Shown here: one piece after another, positions 1 through 14,874 of the stretch
Numbering within the stretch: the stretch's first letter is position 1
How the letters are laid out: every line of letters begins with the position of its first letter
Virus record (IMG/VR): IMGVR_UViG_2529293249_000015
Span: 1-23,475 of that record
DNA: 23,475 bases
Source of the DNA: a virus
Lineage: Duplodnaviria > Heunggongvirae > Uroviricota > Caudoviricetes
Direction: 5' to 3' (one strand)
The notes under the pieces: model-generated
Seen by the model: the letters and a program-made list of their open reading frames with translations, nothing else
Databases searched by the model: none
What the model was told of the DNA's origin: nothing
Made by a program: the position numbers and the translations under genes

Positions 1-258
1 ATGCAAACCGTTATTTTTGGTCGTCCGGGTTGCCCTTACTGTGTGCGTGCAAAAGATCTGGCTGAGAAATTGAGCAATGAACGCGATGATTTTCAGTATC
101 AGTATGTAGATATTCGTGCGGAAGGGATCACTAAAGAAGATCTACAACAAAAGGCAGGTAAACCCGTAGAAACCGTGCCGCAGATTTTTGTCGATCAGCA
201 ACATATCGGCGGCTATACCGATTTTGCTGCATGGGTGAAAGAAAATCTGGACGCCTGA
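1..258 (+). CDS. grxA: glutaredoxin 1
   Basis: 85-aa ORF with the CPYC active-site motif (GRPGCPYCVRAK), matching E. coli Grx1 in length and sequence; sits beside ybjM/ybjL as in E. coli. Confidence 0.9.
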   Translation: MQTVIFGRPGCPYCVRAKDLAEKLSNERDDFQYQYVDIRAEGITKEDLQQKAGKPVETVPQIFVDQQHIGGYTDFAAWVKENLDA

Positions 259-267
259 TCGTCTGAC

Positions 268-300
268 AAGCCCTCGCGTTGAGGGCTTTACTGATTTTTT
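268..300 (+). terminator. hairpin plus T-run between convergent grxA and ybjM
   Basis: 8-bp stem (aagccctc / gagggctt) with 5-nt loop at 268..288, followed by a T-rich stretch ending in TTTTTT at 295..300; lies between the 3' ends of convergent genes. Confidence 0.4.
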
Positions 301-665
301 CTGTGCTGTGGTTTAAACAAACTACTGATAAATAAGAAACACAGTGCCCCCAGCGCACACCAGAACACCGCGCTTAGTAACCATGCCAGCTCTTGCCAGA
401 ATGAGCGCGTCGGTGAAAAAAACAGCCGCATAATGAGCATCGAACAGGGTGCCGCCAGCATTGCGCCAAACAGAGGTTTCAGGACTTCTCTACGCTGTGA
501 AAAGAAGCTGGCGACTGCTCCAGGAAGAATGAAAAATAGCAAGCCGATTTCAGGATGCCCGGCAGCCCGAAAAGCGCCTTTCATGTGCGTCGCCAGAAAA
601 AGGCACACCACAATGAAGAGGACAAAACAGCAGATTGCCCCCGCCCAACGTTGTTTATGTTTCAC
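288..665 (-). CDS. ybjM: inner membrane protein YbjM
   Basis: 125-aa hydrophobic ORF, N-terminus MKHKQRWAGAICCF, in the expected position between grxA and ybjL. Confidence 0.8.
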   Translation of the reverse strand: MKHKQRWAGAICCFVLFIVVCLFLATHMKGAFRAAGHPEIGLLFFILPGAVASFFSQRREVLKPLFGAMLAAPCSMLIMRLFFSPTRSFWQELAWLLSAVFWCALGALCFLFISSLFKPQHRKNQ

Positions 666-934: not shown

Positions 935-2620
935 GTGAATATAAACGTCGCCGAATTGTTAAATGGGAATTACATTCTGTTATTATTTGTGGTCCTCGCG
1001 CTTGGGCTATGTCTCGGAAAGTTACGACTTGGTTCGATCCAACTGGGTAATTCCATTGGCGTTTTAGTCGTATCGCTGTTATTAGGCCAACAACATTTCA
1101 GCATTAACACCGATGCGCTTAATCTTGGCTTTATGCTGTTTATTTTCTGCGTCGGGGTCGAAGCCGGACCGAACTTTTTTTCCATTTTTTTTCGCGATGG
1201 GAAAAATTACCTAATGTTAGCACTGGTGATGGTTGGCAGTGCGCTGGTGATCGCCTTAGGGTTAGGTAAGCTGTTTGGCTGGGATATTGGCCTGACGGCC
1301 GGTATGTTAGCAGGCTCTATGACGTCGACACCGGTTCTGGTCGGTGCTGGCGATACACTGCGTCATTCCGGCATGGAAAGCAGGCAGCTCTCACTGGCAC
1401 TGGATAATCTGAGCCTCGGGTATGCCTTAACCTATTTAATCGGTCTGGTGAGTTTGATTGTTGGTGCGCGTTACTTGCCGAAATTGCAGCATCAGGACTT
1501 ACAGACCAGCGCCCAGCAAATCGCCCGCGAACGTGGCCTGGACACTGATGCCAACCGTAAGGTTTATTTACCGGTGATCCGCGCCTATCGCGTCGGCCCG
1601 GAGCTGGTGGCCTGGACCGACGGCAAAAATCTGCGTGAACTGGGTATTTATCGACAAACCGGCTGCTACATTGAACGTATTCGACGTAACGGGATTCTGG
1701 CAAATCCAGACGGTGATGCCGTGCTACAAATGGGCGATGAAATAGCGTTGGTAGGCTATCCCGACGCCCATGCCCGACTCGATCCCAGCTTCCGTAACGG
1801 TAAAGAAGTTTTCGATCGTGACCTTCTCGACATGCGTATCGTCACTGAAGAAGTGGTCGTTAAAAACCATAACGCTGTAGGTAAACGTCTCGCACAACTG
1901 AAGTTGACCGATCACGGTTGCTTCCTTAACCGCGTCATTCGTAGCCAGATTGAGATGCCGATAGATGACAACGTCGTGCTTAACAAAGGTGACGTTTTAC
2001 AAGTCAGCGGTGATGCCCGTCGCGTAAAAACCATCGCCGATCGCATCGGCTTTATCTCGATTCACAGCCAGGTCACTGACCTGCTGGCATTTTGCGCCTT
2101 CTTTGTTATTGGGCTGATGATCGGGATGATCACCTTCCAGTTCAGCACATTCAGTTTCGGCATGGGGAACGCTGCCGGGTTGTTATTCGCCGGAATTATG
2201 CTGGGCTTTATGCGTGCTAACCACCCGACCTTCGGTTACATTCCGCAAGGTGCATTAAGCATGGTGAAAGAGTTCGGCTTGATGGTGTTTATGGCAGGCG
2301 TTGGTCTGAGCGCCGGTAGCGGTATTAATAACGGCCTGGGCGCGATTGGCGGTCAGATGTTGATTGCCGGATTAATTGTCAGTCTTGTGCCCGTGGTTAT
2401 CTGTTTCTTGTTCGGTGCTTATGTATTGCGAATGAACCGCGCACTGTTGTTCGGCGCAATGATGGGCGCACGCACCTGCGCGCCGGCAATGGAGATCATC
2501 AGTGATACAGCTCGCAGTAACATCCCTGCGCTGGGCTACGCGGGCACCTACGCAATCGCCAACGTCCTGCTGACGCTGGCAGGGACAATCATCGTCATGG
2601 TATGGCCAGGATTAGGATAA
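935..2620 (+). CDS. ybjL: putative AAE-family transporter YbjL
   Basis: 561-aa polytopic membrane ORF with GTG start ([20 protein letters not shown]), central soluble TrkA-C-like region, matching YbjL in length and N-terminus. Confidence 0.85.
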
Positions 2621-2732
2621 AACTGAAGTTGCCCTGAAAATGAAATTTTTTTGCACAACCGCAGAACTTTTCCGCAGGGCATCAGTCTTAATTAGTGCCA
2701 CTGCTTTTCTTTGATGTCCCCATTTTGTGGAG

Positions 2733-2775
2733 CCCATCAACCCCGCCATTTCGGTTCAAGGTTGATGGGTTTTTT
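2733..2775 (+). terminator. intrinsic terminator-like hairpin downstream of ybjL
   Basis: Perfect 10-bp stem cccatcaacc (2733..2742) / ggttgatggg (2760..2769), 17-nt loop, followed by TTTTTT (2770..2775). Confidence 0.5.
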
Positions 2776-2855
2776 GTTGCCTGAAATTTATGCCTTTTAA
2801 AATCATGATGTTAGAAGCAGTGTTTTTTAACGATGGCGACAAATTGGCGGCAGAG

Positions 2856-3074
2856 TCAAAGAGAGAGCGCCACCTGTCCTGATTTCATTGGATGCGGCTG
2901 AACCGGATTTGACTCTTTTGGCGTTGCAATCGAACGAACAAAAGTTTCATGGGTAACAAAAGTATGGCTGCAGTTAATGTTCTGGCACTGGTTGTAACGC
3001 TCTTTGGTCAATGAAGATACCTGAAAACTGCTGCGAGTATGGGCGGCACTTCCACACAGTGGGCAAATCATCAT
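2856..3074 (-). CDS. ogr: Ogr-family zinc-finger late transcription activator
   Basis: About 72 aa from MMICPLCGSAAHTRSS with C-x2-C ... C-x4-C pattern (CPLC ... CQNINC), resembling P2 Ogr; located directly after D as in P2. The tracked ORF extends 11 codons upstream; I take the MMICPLC start. Confidence 0.85.
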   Translation of the reverse strand: MMICPLCGSAAHTRSSFQVSSLTKERYNQCQNINCSHTFVTHETFVRSIATPKESNPVQPHPMKSGQVALSL

Positions 3075-3164
3075 TTTTCGAGTTCTCCTCATTTTTGCTA
3101 AATTCACAATAATGATACCGCATTATTCCATTTTGAAAACTTAAAAGTTCTCCATTGCGAAGAA

Positions 3165-4265
3165 TCATTCAATTTCGAAATCATCAATCTTCACTTCAAG
3201 CTCCAGACTGGTCGTAAAACCGTTATCCGGGCTGACAGTATGCGTCAGGGTGGTAATGGTCCATTCCGCATCATCTATCGGCTGTTTAAAGCCACTGACC
3301 TTCACAGGCATTTCCGTGTAGAGATCTGCCCGACCTTCTGCCAGTTGTAGCGAGAATGACGCAACGCCGCGTTGCAGGCGTTCCCACTGCATTTTCGCCG
3401 CTCGTTCGGCGTTGCTCCGGTTGGCATAAGTGCGATTAAGTACCAGCACGTTTTCATCCGTACCCACCAGGTAATCGCCCTGCTTCGCTTCCGGCTCTTT
3501 CTTCTGCTTCTTAGTCCTGCGCTTACGCTTCACCGTGGTGCTTTCTTTCTTCTCGGGTTCGCGGGTATGCAACCAGCTGGCAATTACGCCCGTGTAGGCT
3601 CCGCGATCTGCCAGGGTAAAGCGGTGACTGTCGCCGTCCTTGCGTGTGATAGTGATAACCGGTAGTGGTTTACCGCTGGCGCTTTTGCCCTGTCCCTGCC
3701 GAATGAATAACAGATTGCCATTTTTCACCGACGCAATAGCACCGTACTGGCGCGCCAGCCGCATCAAAAAACTGCCGTCACTTTCATTGGTCTGGTCTAT
3801 ATGATCCACGGGTTTATTCGACAGGTCTTTACCCAGTGCCATCTTCAGTTTGTGCCGCGCGGCTATTTCCTTCACCACTTCCCCGACTGTGGTCTTGTGC
3901 CACGACTTTTCACGGCGGGTATTCAGCGTTTCACGAAAATCAGCACTTCGCGCCCGGATAGTCAGGCGATCCGGCGCGCCAGTGTGTTCAATCTCGTCCA
4001 CCGTGAATGCCCCTTTCGGGAAAAGCGGCTGCCCCTTCCAGCCCAGCGCCAGCGTAATGACCGCACCACGGCGCGGCAGCGCGATTTTTCTGTCGGCGTC
4101 GTCCAGTTCCAGATCAAGCTGGTCTGCTTCAAAGCCCCGGTTATCCGTCAACGTCAGCCCCATCAGGCGGTTGTCCAGCACAGTGGTGATATCCCTGCCC
4201 TCAATACTGATGCTGAATGCCGGAGTTTTGTTGCCTTTCTTAAGCAGTTCAGAGCTGAAATTCAC
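3165..4265 (-). CDS. D: tail protein D (late control gene D homologue)
   Basis: 366-aa ORF, GTG start overlapping the U stop; position and size match P2 gpD. Confidence 0.85.
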   Translation of the reverse strand: MNFSSELLKKGNKTPAFSISIEGRDITTVLDNRLMGLTLTDNRGFEADQLDLELDDADRKIALPRRGAVITLALGWKGQPLFPKGAFTVDEIEHTGAPDRLTIRARSADFRETLNTRREKSWHKTTVGEVVKEIAARHKLKMALGKDLSNKPVDHIDQTNESDGSFLMRLARQYGAIASVKNGNLLFIRQGQGKSASGKPLPVITITRKDGDSHRFTLADRGAYTGVIASWLHTREPEKKESTTVKRKRRTKKQKKEPEAKQGDYLVGTDENVLVLNRTYANRSNAERAAKMQWERLQRGVASFSLQLAEGRADLYTEMPVKVSGFKQPIDDAEWTITTLTHTVSPDNGFTTSLELEVKIDDFEIE

Positions 4266-8829: not shown

Positions 8830-10002
8830 TTACGCGCTGACCTGGCTGGCGAAATTCACCAGGTACTGATCGGTGATGCGCTGACGCAGCATCAGGTTTT
8901 CAAGTGGCGGCACTGGCGTGTAGTCGTAGTCGATGGTGAATTTTCCGGCTTTCAGCGTGTCTTTGTCGTTCACCGACTCATCCAGCCAGCAATCACCACC
9001 AATGAGATAGCCCTGACTGATCAGGCTGCGCATTTTGGCGCGGATACCTTCGATAATGTCGCGGGCCAGCGACGGGTTAAGCGGTTTATCCACCGCCCAC
9101 ATGTGTGCTTCTGCCATCGTGTCCATCAGCACCTGCGCCGTGCGGGTGTAGTTTTCGAAGGCAAAGAGCGGGTCATCACTCAGGCAGCGGGAACCCCAGA
9201 AGCGGAAACCGTCTTTACGCACAAGCGTGGTGACGTCGTTCTGGTTCAGCAGACCTGCATCGGTTGCCGGGTCCTGCAGATCCCAGAACACATCTGCAGA
9301 AATTCCGGTGACACCGTTCACGCCCACGTTGGACAGGCTTTTGTGCCATCCGGTCTGCTCGTCAATTTTGGCGCGCAGACCAAGCGCACGGGCGGTGGCA
9401 TATGCCGTTGCTTCGGCATTCAGCACCGTGTCCCAGCCAGTAAAGTCAGGCCAGATCAGCATCCCTTCGCGCTGGCTGAAGTTTTCGCGGTAAGTGATCG
9501 CCTCCTGCACTGTCTTGCAGCCATACGCTGACAGGTAAGCAAATCCACGCAGGCTTTGCGCCACGCTCAGCAACTCAGTAGCTACCGCCTTGGTGTCGTG
9601 GCCTGGCACGCCGAGAATGCGCGGTTTAACGCCGAGCTGTGACTGGGCAGATAACAGGGCTTTCATACCTGTTTTTTTACCTTCAGCAGTCACTGCGCCG
9701 ATGATATTGGTCGTGGTTTCGTCTTCCGTTTCACCCTGCGGCACACGCACAACAATGGTCACGGGTTTTGCCTGGTCAGCGATGGCATCCAGCGAACGGG
9801 CCAGAGTACCTGACTCACCCGCTTTACCGCTGGCAGTCAGCACATCAGTGATCAGCACGGGTTTATTAAGAGGAAACATTTTTGCATCGGCATCATCGCC
9901 CGTGCAGACCATACCCACGATGGCGGTGCTCACCGTGGTAATAGATCGGGTGCCTTCGTTGACTTCAACAACGCGCACCCCGTGGTGGTAATCCTGAGCC
10001 AT
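8830..10002 (-). CDS. FI: contractile tail sheath protein FI
   Basis: 390-aa ORF ([21 protein letters not shown]) resembling P2 gpFI; strong AGGAGG RBS upstream. Confidence 0.9.
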
Positions 10003-10078
10003 AGTGGCGAACCTCCTGATTGGATTAGGCTTCGCCCTATGTTGAAGTGATTGTGCCTGACAAACAGCTAAGCGCAGT

Positions 10079-10096
10079 TGTACCGTTATTCACACA
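10079..10096 (-). promoter_or_regulatory. candidate Ogr-dependent late promoter element upstream of FI (P_F)
   Basis: TGT-N12-ACA dyad (coding strand TGTGTGAATAACGGTACA), then 34 nt, then CAACAT, then about 40 nt to the FI start codon. Confidence 0.45.
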
Positions 10097-10144
10097 AAAT
10101 GACGGTATTTGTCTGCTTGCAGGGATAATCAAAATAATGCTGAT

Positions 10145-10711
10145 TCAGGGGGATTCATTACTCTTATTTGCCGGAAATTTTCTATAAATTGTGGAAACAC
10201 CCACATCAAAAATCAGTGCAATACGCTGTCTTGATTCTCCGCCCTCGAGTAAGCGTCCAATCTGTGCCCACTGTTCGGTGGTCAACTTAGGACGGCGTCC
10301 ACCTACTCTGCCTTTATCACGAGCTGCAGCCAGCCCCGCCCTGGTACGTTCAACTATCAGTTCGCGTTCCATTTCAGCTAGGGCCCCCATGACATGAAAA
10401 AAGAAACGGCCCATTGGGGTGCTGGTATCAATACTGTCAGTCAGGCTTCGGAAATTCACGCCACACTGACGCAACTCTTCTATCAGCGTAACAAGATGCC
10501 GCATACTGCGCCCCAACCTGTCCAGCTTCCAGACAACCAGAGTGTCTCCTGCCGATAGTGTCCTGAGCAGTTTTTTAAGCCCCGGTCTGTCGGACTTAGT
10601 GCCACTGATTTTATCCTCAAAAATCCGCTCACATCCCGCGCAGTTCAGTGCATTACGTTGCAAATCGGTGTTCTGGTCATTTGTTGACACGCGTACATAG
10701 CCAATAAGCAT
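10145..10711 (-). CDS. serine-recombinase DNA invertase (Gin/Hin/Cin/Pin family)
   Basis: 188 aa from MLIGYVRVSTNDQNTDLQRNAL with catalytic Ser motif and C-terminal helix-turn-helix; near-identical in stretches to Gin/Hin. The tracked ORF has a 15-codon upstream extension; the ATG at 10711 has an RBS. Confidence 0.9.
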   Translation of the reverse strand: MLIGYVRVSTNDQNTDLQRNALNCAGCERIFEDKISGTKSDRPGLKKLLRTLSAGDTLVVWKLDRLGRSMRHLVTLIEELRQCGVNFRSLTDSIDTSTPMGRFFFHVMGALAEMERELIVERTRAGLAAARDKGRVGGRRPKLTTEQWAQIGRLLEGGESRQRIALIFDVGVSTIYRKFPANKSNESP

Positions 10712-10778
10712 GATCAATCCCCTGAATAAAAACCGTGGATGATGCCAGTTAGCCATTATCTCTGCATTTTCATAAACG

Positions 10779-10809
10779 TTGGTTTGGGAGAAGCGGCAAA
10801 ACGGAATGT
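10779..10809. repeat. left inverted repeat of invertible segment (recombination site)
   Basis: 31-bp sequence ttggtttgggagaagcggcaaaacggaatgt, a perfect reverse-complement match to 12293..12323. Confidence 0.8.
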
Positions 10810-11134
10810 GGGAACAGGTTCAGGTCAGATACCGGATATGAGTAGCTTTGCATCAGCACTCTCTTCGAGTGGCTACCAGAAATTACCTTCTGGACTAATT
10901 ATTCAGTGGGGGGCGGCTGTTGCTGGAATTGGCAGCACTGGGGGTACAGGAAATGTAGTCTCATTCCCTGTTGCATTCCCCAGATATTGCGCCCAAATAA
11001 TTACATCTTACGATAATGGAAGCTCGTCAATCATTGCTGGTGCAGCAGGAAACCAAACTACCACTCAATTTCTTTTACGTTGTGGTGCAACCGGTGGTAG
11101 TTATAACTTCCGCTGGTTAGCCGTGGGGTATTAA
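10781..11134 (+). other. alternative tail-fibre C-terminal (receptor-binding) cassette, currently unexpressed orientation
   Basis: Begins in frame at the repeat with GLGEAAKRNVG, the same residues found at the H crossover point, and continues as a different fibre tip (...QIPDMSSFASALSSSGYQKLPSGLIIQWG...). Confidence 0.7.
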
Positions 11135-11136
11135 TT

Positions 11137-11580
11137 ATGGATAACTACTATTTTTCACCTTCGACTTTGGCATTTTATCCTGAAGATCTCATGTTGTTAT
11201 ATGAAGCAGCAGGAACTTTACCTGATGATATTATTTCTGTGCCACATGAAATATTTGCTACTTATTCAGGAGAGCCACCACGAGGAAAAAAGCGAGGTAC
11301 TACAGAAGATGGGCAGCCCACCTGGAGTAATCTGCCGCCTTTAAGTCATGAGGAAGAAGTTGAGGTTGCGGACGCCCAAAGACAGTTTCGTATTGATGAG
11401 GCGAACGACTACATGAATAGTAAGCAATGGCCAGGTAAAGCCGCTATTGGTCGTCTGAAAGGCGAGGAACTGGCGCAATATAATTCGTGGCTGGATTATC
11501 TGGACGCACTGGAGCTGGTCGATACTTCCGGTGCGCCAGATATTGAATGGCCTACACCTCCGGTAACTCAGGCCAGCTAA
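11137..11580 (+). CDS. tail-fibre assembly protein, alternative-orientation copy
   Basis: 147-aa ORF ending in the conserved tail-fibre-assembly motif VDTSGAPDIEWPTPP; follows the alternative fibre tip. Confidence 0.8.
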   Translation: MDNYYFSPSTLAFYPEDLMLLYEAAGTLPDDIISVPHEIFATYSGEPPRGKKRGTTEDGQPTWSNLPPLSHEEEVEVADAQRQFRIDEANDYMNSKQWPGKAAIGRLKGEELAQYNSWLDYLDALELVDTSGAPDIEWPTPPVTQAS

Positions 11581-11947
11581 TCTCAGGAGCCGTCGAAGTG
11601 TCGACGGCTTTTACTTCTTTTTTGTAGTCCATCCAGGCAGATAGTTTTTCTTTATCTGTACTGCTGATATCACCAAGCATTAATTCCACCCGCCAGTCAG
11701 CTGTGACATTATCGGCATGAGCAAGTAACTGCATTCGCTGATTTTCAGCACGTGCGACATAATCAATCGCCGGAGATTTCAGTACCGGTAAACCATTTTC
11801 ATCTGACGTGATTAATTTCCCCCCTTCCTGCTGTCCGGCAATTAATTCATTGTATAAGTCTGTACTTATCTCAACAATGTCAGCAGACATGTCGCTGTTT
11901 ATACCATCAAAGAAAAAACCATTAGTCGATTTTGAGAAATAAATCAT
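11552..11947 (-). CDS. tail-fibre assembly protein, active-orientation copy (P2 G position)
   Basis: 131 aa from MIYFSKSTNGFFFDG, ending in VDTSTAPEISWPELP; starts just after the H stop; overlaps the opposite assembly gene by 29 bp at the 3' ends. Confidence 0.8.
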   Translation of the reverse strand: MIYFSKSTNGFFFDGINSDMSADIVEISTDLYNELIAGQQEGGKLITSDENGLPVLKSPAIDYVARAENQRMQLLAHADNVTADWRVELMLGDISSTDKEKLSAWMDYKKEVKAVDTSTAPEISWPELPEV

Positions 11948-11955
11948 AGATATAC

Positions 11956-13371
11956 CTATACACCGATTGCTACCCAAAAACAGGACCTTTCATATTTGAC
12001 AATTTCTCCCTGAGATATACCGCCAACAATTATATAGAACTGTGATTTGCTGATATCAGAACAGTTCGCTATGCCCATTGCAGATATACCAGCCACCGAC
12101 GTTGTATGTGGCACAGCCAACAGCGCAAGTGAACGATTTGGGAATGTTACCGGGTAAGTCACCGTATAGTTTGATGCTCCACTGACAATACCCCACTGAA
12201 TAATCAGACCTGAAGGGAGTTTTTGAAACCCCGTTGATGAAAGTGAACTGGCAAACGCCGCCATATCCGGAATTTGGTTTTGCTCGTTACCTACATTCCG
12301 TTTTGCCGCTTCTCCCAAACCAAGGTATGTGAGAAGACCAGTTACATCCTTTCCACTCAAATTAGTCAGCGTATTGTCCAGCGGTTGTTTACCTGCCAGT
12401 GCATTAAGCATTGTCGTGGCAAAGTTCGGGTCATTCCCCAGCGCCGCCGCCAGTTCGTTCAGTGTATCCAGTGCCGCAGGTGCAGAACCCACCATTGCCG
12501 CAATCGCCGATTTCACAAATGCCGTGGTGGCAATTTGTGTATTGTTGACCGACTGTGCCGCAGTAGGTGCGGTTGGCGTTCCGGTGAGTGCCGGACTCGA
12601 CAGCGGCGCTTTCAGTGCCAGCGCATTGTTAATGGTGGTACTGAATTTCGGATCATTGTTAATGGCTGCGGCTATTTCTTTCAGCGTGTCCAGCGTGGCT
12701 GGCGCACCATTAATAAGGGCCGTCAGTGCCGCCTGTACAAACGCAGTGGTCGCAACCTGCGTGGTATTATTCCCCGCCGCTGGCGTTGGCGCTTTGGGGG
12801 TTCCGGTAAATGTCGGGCTGGCTTTTGGCGCGTACTGTGAATGCGGGTCCGGTGCGGCAAGATGTTTTGCCATCTGATCATCCGCGTACACCTTCAGCTC
12901 CAGTGCCTTGTCATCCACATACTTGCGGGTTGCCAGCACTACAGCAGGGTCGATTTTCAGGGTGATATTGTCCGTGCTGCTGGTAATCAGCACCATGCGC
13001 ACGGTCTGAGTGCGCCCGCTACCTTCAGCCAGTTGCGGCTTATAGCTTTCCGGGCAGTTGCCCACGGCAATCAATGCCCCGGACTCATCAAACAAGCCCA
13101 CTTCACGTATCCACCAACCGCCCTCGTTTTCAGGGATCACCTGTTCGGCAATAATCTGGCTGCTGTTCTGCGGGTCGATATAAAGCATATTCAGCGCAGC
13201 CCGGCGTTTCTCATTTACCAGTGCCGTCTGCTTTGCGTCCGGCGTTGGCAATACTCCACCGCCATCGCCCACCGCCATATGGGTAATTTTTAGCGGCACA
13301 CCGAGCGCGGCGGCGCTGGCAAGTTTCGCCGCGCCAATATCCGTCAGCAGGGTATAAAATTTTGTGCTCAT
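11956..13371 (-). CDS. H: tail fibre protein H
   Basis: 471-aa ORF with P2 gpH-like N-terminus (MSTKFYTLLTDIGAAKLASAAALGVP); the C-terminal 122 aa lie inside the invertible segment. Confidence 0.9.
   Translation of the reverse strand: MSTKFYTLLTDIGAAKLASAAALGVPLKITHMAVGDGGGVLPTPDAKQTALVNEKRRAALNMLYIDPQNSSQIIAEQVIPENEGGWWIREVGLFDESGALIAVGNCPESYKPQLAEGSGRTQTVRMVLITSSTDNITLKIDPAVVLATRKYVDDKALELKVYADDQMAKHLAAPDPHSQYAPKASPTFTGTPKAPTPAAGNNTTQVATTAFVQAALTALINGAPATLDTLKEIAAAINNDPKFSTTINNALALKAPLSSPALTGTPTAPTAAQSVNNTQIATTAFVKSAIAAMVGSAPAALDTLNELAAALGNDPNFATTMLNALAGKQPLDNTLTNLSGKDVTGLLTYLGLGEAAKRNVGNEQNQIPDMAAFASSLSSTGFQKLPSGLIIQWGIVSGASNYTVTYPVTFPNRSLALLAVPHTTSVAGISAMGIANCSDISKSQFYIIVGGISQGEIVKYERSCFWVAIGV
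12293..12323. repeat. right inverted repeat of invertible segment (recombination site, inside H)
   Basis: Reverse complement is identical to 10779..10809; encodes GLGEAAKRNVG in the H frame. Confidence 0.8.
12382..12816 (-). repeat. tandem duplication of a roughly 70-aa module within H
   Basis: Two adjacent units, TGTPKAPTPAAGNNTTQVATTAFVQAALTALINGAPATLDTLKEIAAAINNDPKFSTTINNALALKAP and TGTPTAPTAAQSVNNTQIATTAFVKSAIAAMVGSAPAALDTLNELAAALGNDPNFATTMLNALAGKQP. Confidence 0.6.
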
Positions 13372-13973
13372 GGATTCACTCTCATTGTGTCAATAACATG
13401 GACCGCCCCGCCTTCATGCGCGGTGCCACCGGAAATAATCGTTTCGTTGATATACGGATAGATCGTGATTTCTTCGCCAAGATAGCTGGCGGCTCCCACC
13501 CAATGCGGGCCGCTGGTCTGCAGATTGATGGACATGCCGATCATGTGGCGGCTACATGGTTTGGCATCGCTTATCAGTCGCTCAAGTTCCAGATAGGTAT
13601 CTTCAGTGATGCCCTGGTCCTGCACGCCGATATCCAGGCGAAACGTGCCCGGTGTTTCTCCGGTCTGCCACCACTCAATAATGCGGATCAGGAATCCGAA
13701 CGGCTCCACCACCCGCCGCACGGCACTGGTGGTCCCTTTATGCTGATGAATATAAAAAGCATCCTTCACCACCTGGCGCTTGACGCTTTCTGTCCAGCCC
13801 TCGTCCCAGCGATCCACAGAGAACGCCCAGGCGAGATAAGGCAGGAAACTGACCGGACAGGTTGCCGGATTCCACAAGTCACGAAGCGGCACCTGCAGAT
13901 CAGAAATCCCGCTGCAGGTTTGCGCCAGTCGACGCTCCAGTGGTGTTGAACCCGGTGGCAGCAGACTATTCAT
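13368..13973 (-). CDS. I: baseplate assembly protein I
   Basis: 201-aa ORF between J and H, overlapping both; position and size fit P2 gpI. Confidence 0.85.
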   Translation of the reverse strand: MNSLLPPGSTPLERRLAQTCSGISDLQVPLRDLWNPATCPVSFLPYLAWAFSVDRWDEGWTESVKRQVVKDAFYIHQHKGTTSAVRRVVEPFGFLIRIIEWWQTGETPGTFRLDIGVQDQGITEDTYLELERLISDAKPCSRHMIGMSINLQTSGPHWVGAASYLGEEITIYPYINETIISGGTAHEGGAVHVIDTMRVNP

Positions 13974-14874
13974 CCGTTCCTCCGTTGGTTACGCTCCACT
14001 GCGTACATGATGCCGCCTGTGTTTTGTTCAGGACCACATCCGCCAGAGGAGAAGCCAGCTCCACACGCTGCACCCCCTCAACATGCAGGGCGGCAAAGAT
14101 GGCGCTACGGCGAATATCCCGACCAAGACGCGTCTGACTGGCGATGTACTTCTGCAGGCTGGCTTTTGCCGCTGCCATTACCGGCTCTGCTTCCGGTCCA
14201 GGATAGAGAAAAATGGTGGCTTCCACGCGATACGGGATGATTTCTGCGCTGCGAACCGTAAGACGGTCAGCCACCGGGCGGACGTTCTCACTGTTCAGAG
14301 CTTTTTCCACCACGTCCAGCAGGTCTTTTTCTGCAGTTCCATCGCCTTCGCGGCTAAGGACAGTCAGCACCACCTCTGCAGGTGCCGGGCTGGTTGCACT
14401 GGCATCCGCCACCCGACCGTCGGCGCTTCGGGCATGAAATTCATAAGCTGCAGTTGGCCCCGCAACAGAAAGCCCTTCAAAGGCTGCAGGCACACGCAGG
14501 CGCAACGCTTCATCGCTTTCCATCACAGCTGCAACGGGCGGCACAGCATCATTATCAGCAGGCGTCACCGTCAGGCGTGTCACGTTGTAGTTGGCAGCGA
14601 GCTGGTCAAGATCGCCGCCCATCGCGTAAGCCACCATCACCGCCTGCGCGGCTTCGTTAATGCGCTGGCGCAGAAGCAACTCACGGTAAGCGTTCTCCTG
14701 CAACAATTTAGTGGCGGGTTCAGATTCCAGTTCCAGCGTGCGGATCACTGCTTCCTGCTCATCTTTCGGATGAAGCGCCACAAATTCTGCCTTGCGTTCG
14801 GCAAGCAGCGTCTCAAAGTCCGGCACATCCACAATCTGCGGTGCAGGCAACTGCGAAAGGTCAATCACTGCCAT
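13966..14874 (-). CDS. J: baseplate assembly protein J
   Basis: 302 aa from MAVIDLSQLPAPQIVDVPDFETLL with AGGAG RBS; the tracked ORF extends 13 codons further upstream. Confidence 0.9.
   Translation of the reverse strand: MAVIDLSQLPAPQIVDVPDFETLLAERKAEFVALHPKDEQEAVIRTLELESEPATKLLQENAYRELLLRQRINEAAQAVMVAYAMGGDLDQLAANYNVTRLTVTPADNDAVPPVAAVMESDEALRLRVPAAFEGLSVAGPTAAYEFHARSADGRVADASATSPAPAEVVLTVLSREGDGTAEKDLLDVVEKALNSENVRPVADRLTVRSAEIIPYRVEATIFLYPGPEAEPVMAAAKASLQKYIASQTRLGRDIRRSAIFAALHVEGVQRVELASPLADVVLNKTQAASCTQWSVTNGGTDE

Follow-up and report, generated by a model that had tools for sequence, protein, structure and literature searches.

The 235-bp interval between ybjL and ogr is very probably the attL site (B-O-P′) left when a tyrosine integrase inserted a P2-like prophage (Peduoviridae, Fels-2/186 type) at the 3′ end of the σE-dependent small RNA gene rybB. 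The interval (positions 2621..2855) belongs to a 23,475-nucleotide stretch of DNA, which we call the window. It holds the complete host regulatory RNA gene rybB, and the junction leaves this gene intact. From left to right, it comprises host DNA (2621..2764), the attachment core (2765..2778, extending to 2791) and the P′ arm (2792..2855), followed by the ogr stop codon. This region is not an anonymous spacer: it encodes RybB, a core envelope-stress regulator, whose terminator is a busy landing pad for phages.

The genes on either side identify a host flank and a prophage flank. On the left is ybjL, a host gene for an aspartate:alanine antiporter (935..2620, plus strand), recognized from its open reading frame and the RefSeq annotation of the matching region. 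On the right is the late-gene activator ogr (2856..3074, minus strand; Pfam Ogr_Delta, E=5e-22, and RefSeq annotation in lysogens), the last prophage gene before att, and beyond it a gene for a gpD-like tail or baseplate hub protein (3165..4265, minus strand; Pfam Phage_GPD, E=3.7e-27). These open reading frames agree with the preliminary description of this DNA, in which the ybjL stop at 2620 and the ogr stop at 2856 enclose 235 bp. RefSeq labels the DNA matching this region in lysogens as ybjL, ogr/Delta-like zinc finger and late control D. The open reading frames, Pfam matches and RefSeq annotation of near-identical lysogens give the P2-type order D-ogr-att in the window, so that an Ogr/Delta zinc-finger activator and gpD are arranged as in the late region of P2-like phages (Peduoviridae). 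An ogr-proximal junction had been expected on the P2 model, and the interval indeed represents the ogr-proximal (P′) end of a P2-like prophage. ARAGORN detected neither a tRNA nor a tmRNA anywhere in the window, which confirms the reported lack of a tRNA in the interval and rules out either kind of gene as the integration target.

Comparison with unoccupied chromosomes places the junction. A 901-bp query across the interval was run against 5426 complete E. coli genomes and found matches in 5419. The alignment covers the full 901 bp in 1115 of the 5419, which are lysogens, and the others align only over query positions 1..492, corresponding to the window up to 2791. Positions 2621..2778 of the window show 0 mismatches to the K-12-type empty site, after which homology is lost; relative to UTI89/O157-type empty sites, the window is identical through 2791 and divergence starts at 2792. 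A prophage end with its att half-site thus lies within 2621..2855, as originally proposed, with empty-site homology lost after 2778 or 2791, and contiguity of the whole 235 bp in prophage-free genomes, which would have moved the junction elsewhere, was not observed, because empty sites match only to 2791. The junction had also been placed directly downstream of ybjL. It is downstream, but not directly so, because 144 bp of host DNA (2621..2764) carrying rybB and its putative σE promoter precede it.

The window ends inside the late genes, and the best complete genomes are only 96-98% identical to it (over 9000..14000, with 89% covered); we therefore read attR and int in related lysogens. The nearest full lysogen (L002) is ~97% identical across the prophage and differs in its tail-fibre cassette. 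In the corresponding part of the window (10145..12335), a 1477-bp segment lies between two 46-nt inverted repeats (10767-10812 and 12290-12335; 89% complementary) and is adjoined by a 203-amino-acid open reading frame (10145..10756, minus strand) that is annotated as a recombinase in relatives. Homology between the window and L002 is lost exactly there (10794..12308), and the segment looks like an invertible tail-fibre cassette of the Gin/Cin type.

The empty site of strain DH5a (L001) reads ybjL-rybB-rcdA. L002 has the same ybjL-rybB-ogr junction as the window, with int and then rcdA ~34 kb further on. The empty site has a single copy of the 14-mer ATGGGTTTTTTGTT, and L002 has one at each end of its prophage, the copy at the int end directly preceding rcdA. 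An intact attP is present on an IMG/VR contig (L026), in which the int-side arm of L002 is joined via ATGGGTTTTTTGTT to the ogr-side arm of the window. Accordingly, attB reads ..GGTTG ATGGGTTTTTTGTT ATCTAAAACTTATCTAC.. and attP reads ..ACATAA ATGGGTTTTTTGTT GCCTGAAATTTATGCC.., the window supplies attL as B-O-P′ and related lysogens supply attR as P-O-B′. Reciprocal short queries show that the homology of attR and attB begins exactly at the A of ATGGG. This four-site comparison defines ATGGGTTTTTTGTT (2765..2778) as the minimal common core O, identical in attB, attP, attL and attR and present as a direct repeat at both prophage ends (attR being taken from related lysogens). Site comparison further gives a full 27-bp attP core, ATGGGTTTTTTGTTGCCTGAAATTTAT (2765..2791), equal to the UTI89/O157-type attB allele. 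The caution that the core could not be read from one end alone was justified: it emerged only from the empty site combined with the far junction of a related lysogen, and it is by the proposed search for a direct repeat beside int that the 14-mer was found at both ends of that prophage.

Two attB alleles follow rybB in E. coli, a K-12 type, ATCTAAAACTTAT, and a UTI89/O157 type, GCCTGAAATTTAT, as compared between L001 (2980-2992) and L045/L047 at positions equivalent to 2779..2791 of the window. The K-12-type attB has four mismatches to the 27-bp core (2779, 2780, 2783 and 2787), that is, at 4 of the 13 right-half positions. Because the GCCTG form is found next to rybB across Enterobacterales, in at least 120 species, the GCCTG-type attB is likely to be ancestral and the K-12-type allele, with its four clustered transitions, is likely to be derived. 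One database record with this locus, filed under the actinomycete Actinoallomurus acaciae (L102; NZ_JBHLZP010001226.1, 724 nt), consists of E. coli B2-type rybB-rcdA sequence and is most likely an assembly contamination.

Lysogens of K-12-type hosts narrow the site of exchange. In two of them (L002 and L046), attL keeps the phage bases GCCTG... and attR keeps the host bases ATCTA... over these 13 bp, which would confine both strand exchanges to 2765..2778. Judged from these alleles, strand exchange in K-12-type hosts must fall within this 14-bp segment. Serratia-type rybB genes differ up to GGG, which hints at a tighter, 12-bp exchange bound, GGGTTTTTTGTT (2767..2778). Core-type integrase sites were also sought by symmetry. 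The only inverted pair is the 7-bp repeat CATAAAT/ATTTATG in attP, 19 bp apart and too distant for a standard core, and we did not find it convincing. One attR is visibly altered: in E. coli MB50 (L048, ~1586..2300), an IS1A is inserted on the B′ side after ...GTTATCTAAAACTTATC and splits the prophage from rcdA, which would probably prevent excision.

The gene that hosts the core is intact. An Rfam scan of 2300..3300 returned a single hit, RybB (RF00110), at 2700..2778 on the plus strand; it scores 105.3 bits, where the gathering score is 40 (E=2e-22), and all 79 model positions are aligned (1-79/79). The gene, which we place at 2697..2778, is identical to the empty-site sequence and unchanged through its last base. 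We take its 5′ end to be 2697 (GCCACUG...) on the basis of the promoter spacing and of the published 5′ end. Its fold has a predicted energy of -25.2 kcal/mol (z=-3.3). Upstream, on the same strand, sequence matching identifies a candidate σE promoter (2663..2690), with a -35 element AGAACTTTT at 2663..2671 and a -10 element GTCTTA at 2685..2690. These have one mismatch in the -35 and two in the -10 element to the σE motifs published for rybB (-35 GGAACTTTT, -10 GTCAAA; PMC1804206). The same work places rybB between ybjK (rcdA) and ybjL (PMC1804206). At empty sites the gene order is ybjL-rybB-rcdA, and in the window rcdA is displaced by the prophage.

The 3′ part of rybB forms its Rho-independent terminator, a hairpin with a U-tract (2729..2773, plus strand) drawn from the Rfam consensus structure. 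The preliminary description had recorded a terminator-like hairpin at 2733..2775. It exists, as a stem of 2729-2742 paired with 2760-2773 and followed by a T-run (minimum free energy -23.3 kcal/mol, z=-3.9), but it had been left anonymous, whereas the Rfam match makes it the rybB terminator, and it is the integration target. A consensus terminator scan of 2500..3200 made no call; the scan limited loops to 8 nt, and the apical part of the rybB hairpin is a structured 17 nt. We nevertheless assign the hairpin to rybB because the Rfam match and the folding settle its identity. The core covers the 3′ shoulder of this terminator, namely the last 5 stem bases and the T-tract, and its full form runs a few bases beyond.

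To the right of the core, the phage-only part of the P′ arm of attL (2792..2855) is absent from every empty site and contiguous with the P arm in the attP of L026. We compared it with a set of 44 arms drawn from attP and attL sites on viral contigs and in the genomes of many genera. An IHF-like box, AATCATGATGTTA (2801..2813, plus strand), has one mismatch to WATCAANNNNTTR. It falls in a block at +14..+30 after GCCTG that is similar to the IHF consensus and is conserved among 42 non-identical P′ arms; a relaxed IHF pattern lies exactly at +17 in 24 of the 42, with ATCA in 33 and TT in 41. Further along, tandem arm-type putative integrase sites, TGGCGACA-AAT-TGGCGGCA (2834..2853, plus strand), were recognized by pattern match and conserved spacing, and the corresponding 20-mer, TGGCGACAAATTGGCGGCAG, ends two bases before the ogr stop. 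With 3 mismatches tolerated, the arm-site pattern has a single match in the window, where 0.04 would be expected by chance, and the arm repeat is located exactly at +50 after GCCTG in 41 of the 44 arms. From these conserved positions, we infer that the integrase binds at 2834..2853 and IHF at 2801..2813.

The reverse complement of the arm sites reads cTGCCGCCAatt / tGTCGCCA, in full form cTGCCGCCActt. Of the two published arm consensus sequences, tgccGCCActt for the 186 type and tgTGGaCa for the P2 type (PMC3448106), the full form fits the former and not the latter. As well as in the P′ arm, the tandem repeat TGGCGACAAANTGGCGRCAG occurs in the P arm, where it overlaps the 3′ end of int, so that arm-type direct repeats distinct from the core are present on both arms. 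ESSI2_ev040, a diverged phage with an 86% identical Int, shares this core and has the same arm repeats on both attP arms, with the intervening sequence changed. In relatives, the P arm also contains an IHF candidate, AATCAATAAGTTA.

Several further features of the arms were observed. In the P arm of L002 (36866..36898, outside the window), the stretch from int to the core contains two copies of the direct repeat AACTTATTGTTTT, 20 bp apart. Its first copy in most relatives is TAACTTATTGATT, a perfect IHF consensus on the other strand, and the repeats are candidate IHF or Cox/Apl sites. In L008, L023, L044 and L138, the position of the P′ arm is taken by a (CACCAA)n hexanucleotide microsatellite that starts ~33 nt beyond the core. 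Four IMG/VR contigs (L012, L017, L020 and L039) combine the core AAATGGGTTTTTTGTTGCCTG and the P′-arm site at +50 with an unrelated left arm, where a gene ends in ...GATTTCTAA and neither an int 3′ end nor an arm repeat is found within 130 nt; these may represent a different element family that uses the same rybB core.

The integrase gene itself was read in L002 (35790..36842, outside the window). Its product has Int_N (E=3e-32) and Phage_integrase (E=7e-22) domains, and the gene ends 74 bp before the core, so that in this lysogen a tyrosine integrase gene stands beside attR. The relatives encode a 186/Fels-2-type switch comprising CI (Phage_CI_repr and CI_C domains), CII and Fil, and at the Cox/Apl position a 73-amino-acid gene that is annotated as 'Cox protein' or 'MerR family' and gave no Pfam hit. 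Between cI and int, L002 carries an OLD-family nuclease as cargo (33947..35716, outside the window; AAA_15 and an OLD-like TOPRIM). Other lysogens have other cargo, including an ATPase in L003 and, in E. coli HS and CFT073, a 270-nt open reading frame located between int and attR, and the region beside attR is a variable cargo or defence slot across lysogens.

Standard heterobivalent tyrosine recombination is the model with the best support. In this model, Int would bridge the arm sites and the core, with the tandem 186-type arm site serving the N-terminal domain of the integrase; IHF would bend the DNA, and strands would be exchanged within ATGGGTTTTTTGTT. The attP has a hairpin just after int, AACCCGTTTACATAAATGGGTT (-9.0 kcal/mol), whose counterpart in ESSI2_ev040 has a different loop (-9.0 and -9.4 kcal/mol in the two). 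In attP, ATGGGTTTTTTGTT supplies the T-tract and 3′ shoulder of this phage-borne hairpin, which would terminate int. Exchange in the shared ATGGG and T-tract would restore both terminators in full, that of rybB in attL and that of int in attR. Because the same core is the 3′ shoulder of both hairpins, each recombinant site would regain a full terminator and RybB would be unchanged. For the genome sampled here, the far junction is expected to read int, then ...AACCC(G/A)TTTACATAAATGGGTTTTTTGTT, then the rcdA flank; this junction beside int, like the exact cleavage points, we infer from the related sites.

Three other explanations of the interval were weighed against the evidence. That the true junction lies outside 2621..2855, in the 3′ end of ybjL or beyond ogr, so that the interval is all host or all phage, is scarcely credible: nothing was found in its favour, and it is refuted by empty sites that match only to 2791, with mismatches beginning at 2779 or 2792, and by phage attP contigs that match from 2765 rightwards. 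It is also very improbable that the hairpin serves only to terminate ybjL, or ogr on the opposite strand, with integration into anonymous intergenic DNA. Its position, 109 bp 3′ of the ybjL stop, would also allow it to halt read-through from that gene, and the RefSeq tables of the records compared give no ncRNA feature at the hairpin. However, an Rfam RybB match that is full length and scores 105 bits against a threshold of 40, σE promoter motifs correctly spaced upstream and the published rybB locus between ybjK (rcdA) and ybjL all argue for rybB, and no T-run follows the hairpin on the minus strand.

Somewhat less remote, although still improbable, is the suggestion that the prophage end is a remnant, in which a defective or rearranged element has lost int and attR and the junction is a fossil. 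Int and attR are outside the window, attR is damaged in some lysogens, such as strain MB50 with IS1A in B′, and ~80 genomes lack both an intact attB and this type of attL. Yet every late gene in the window is a long, intact open reading frame, and the P′ arm sites are undamaged, with the same sequence as in the free attP. Moreover, attL-type and attR-type sites are nearly equally frequent (1115 versus 1108), indicating that most elements at the rybB site keep both ends. The reading of the interval as the attL of a prophage integrated at the 3′ end of rybB is the one that we retain.

Occupancy of the site is widespread. In the set of 5426 complete E. coli genomes, an intact attB was counted in 4227, an attL-type site in 1115 and an attR-type site in 1108, so that the rybB site is occupied in about a fifth (~20%) of them. 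Beyond E. coli, 30 of 119 species-representative Enterobacterales rybB loci with a GCCTG flank carry an element with the arm site at +50. To compare the two attB alleles, allele-specific 47-mers spanning P-O-B′ were validated on local sequences and then run on the full E. coli collection, in which 1283 genomes matched neither allele probe. In raw counts, uncorrected for phylogroup or clonal sampling, 187 of 1549 genomes with the phage-identical allele are lysogens (12%), as are 898 of 2594 with the K-12-type allele (35%). Without correction for phylogeny, the mismatched K-12-type allele is therefore occupied ~3 times as often as the perfectly matching one.

Four attB mismatches clearly do not prevent integration. 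The possibility that the K-12-type allele serves as an escape (anti-integration) allele was rejected, since it is occupied more often, not less. Nor was a phage attP with the K-12-type core, ATCTAAAAC, found in IMG/VR, where all 7 hits are attR junctions with an rcdA flank. The occupancy difference may be a phylogroup or clonal sampling effect only. A biological explanation, which we consider unlikely, is that integrase binds the mismatched B′ half less strongly, that excision suffers more from this than integration does, and that prophages are trapped as a result; if this were true, attB divergence would be a route to prophage retention. This allele-dependent occupancy is the only possible new lead from the analysis, and a small one.

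The rybB attachment site itself is real, ordinary and already known, although the preliminary description did not recognize it as a documented one, and its presence in the literature means that nothing here changes current understanding of it. With the base-level map of the core, IHF-like box and arm sites, the ends of prophages at this hotspot can be called exactly. For the P2-type prophages Rybb*W, Rybb*B and Rybb*Cr, Archer et al. (2011) give the 'rybB ncRNA' as the site of insertion; Rybb*B, in E. coli B, carries retron Ec86 (PMC3032704). Hochhauser et al. (2023) report only Felsduovirus prophages within rybB at their hotspot #29, in 109 genomes (PMC10121019). Nilsson et al. (2011) deduced att cores for the Fels-2-group prophages PhiECO1 (E. 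coli HS), PhiECO2 (ATCC 8739) and PhiECO3 (CFT073) (PMC3448106); when checked here, the published coordinates of the HS and CFT073 prophages begin right after rcdA, beside the same integrase family. The element in the window shares with these known rybB prophages (PhiECO1-3, Rybb* and those of hotspot #29) the chromosomal site, the integrase family and the Fels-2/186-type switch (CI, CII and Fil). Nothing essential is different; what varies is the cargo (retron Ec86 in E. coli B, the OLD-like nuclease in L002) and the tail-fibre cassettes.

A close relative outside E. coli is Klebsiella phage 4LV2017 (GenBank KY271398 / NC_047818), with an integrase 99.4% identical. Its attL and attR are annotated as ATGGGTTTTTTGTTGCCTG(C), equal to the first 19-20 bp of the 27-bp core, and it has the same core, a Klebsiella rybB flank, the same P′ arm and an adjacent ogr-like gene. 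It differs in its host, Klebsiella, and in the extent of attB identity, which is 19-20 bp compared with 14 or 27 bp for the two E. coli alleles. The integrase of the rybB-site phages shares less than 60% identity with all other families of phage integrase in the collection. Coliphage 186 resembles the present element in its heterobivalent tyrosine integrase, in direct-repeat arm sites of the 186-type consensus on both arms, in its switch genes and in a core placed so that the target RNA gene is regenerated. The target of 186 is a tRNA-Ile gene and its core is long, whereas the present phage uses an sRNA terminator and a core of 14-27 bp and, unlike 186, has ogr next to att, as in P2. With P2 it shares the order D-ogr-att-int and the use of an sRNA gene end as attachment site, cyaR (ryeE) being listed as a P2 site (PMC3032704); the ryeE/ryeB sRNA loci, including the Salmonella ryeB hot spot, are noted as phage targets, likewise at an sRNA gene end. 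P2 differs in its arm consensus (tgTGGaCa), its core and its locus.
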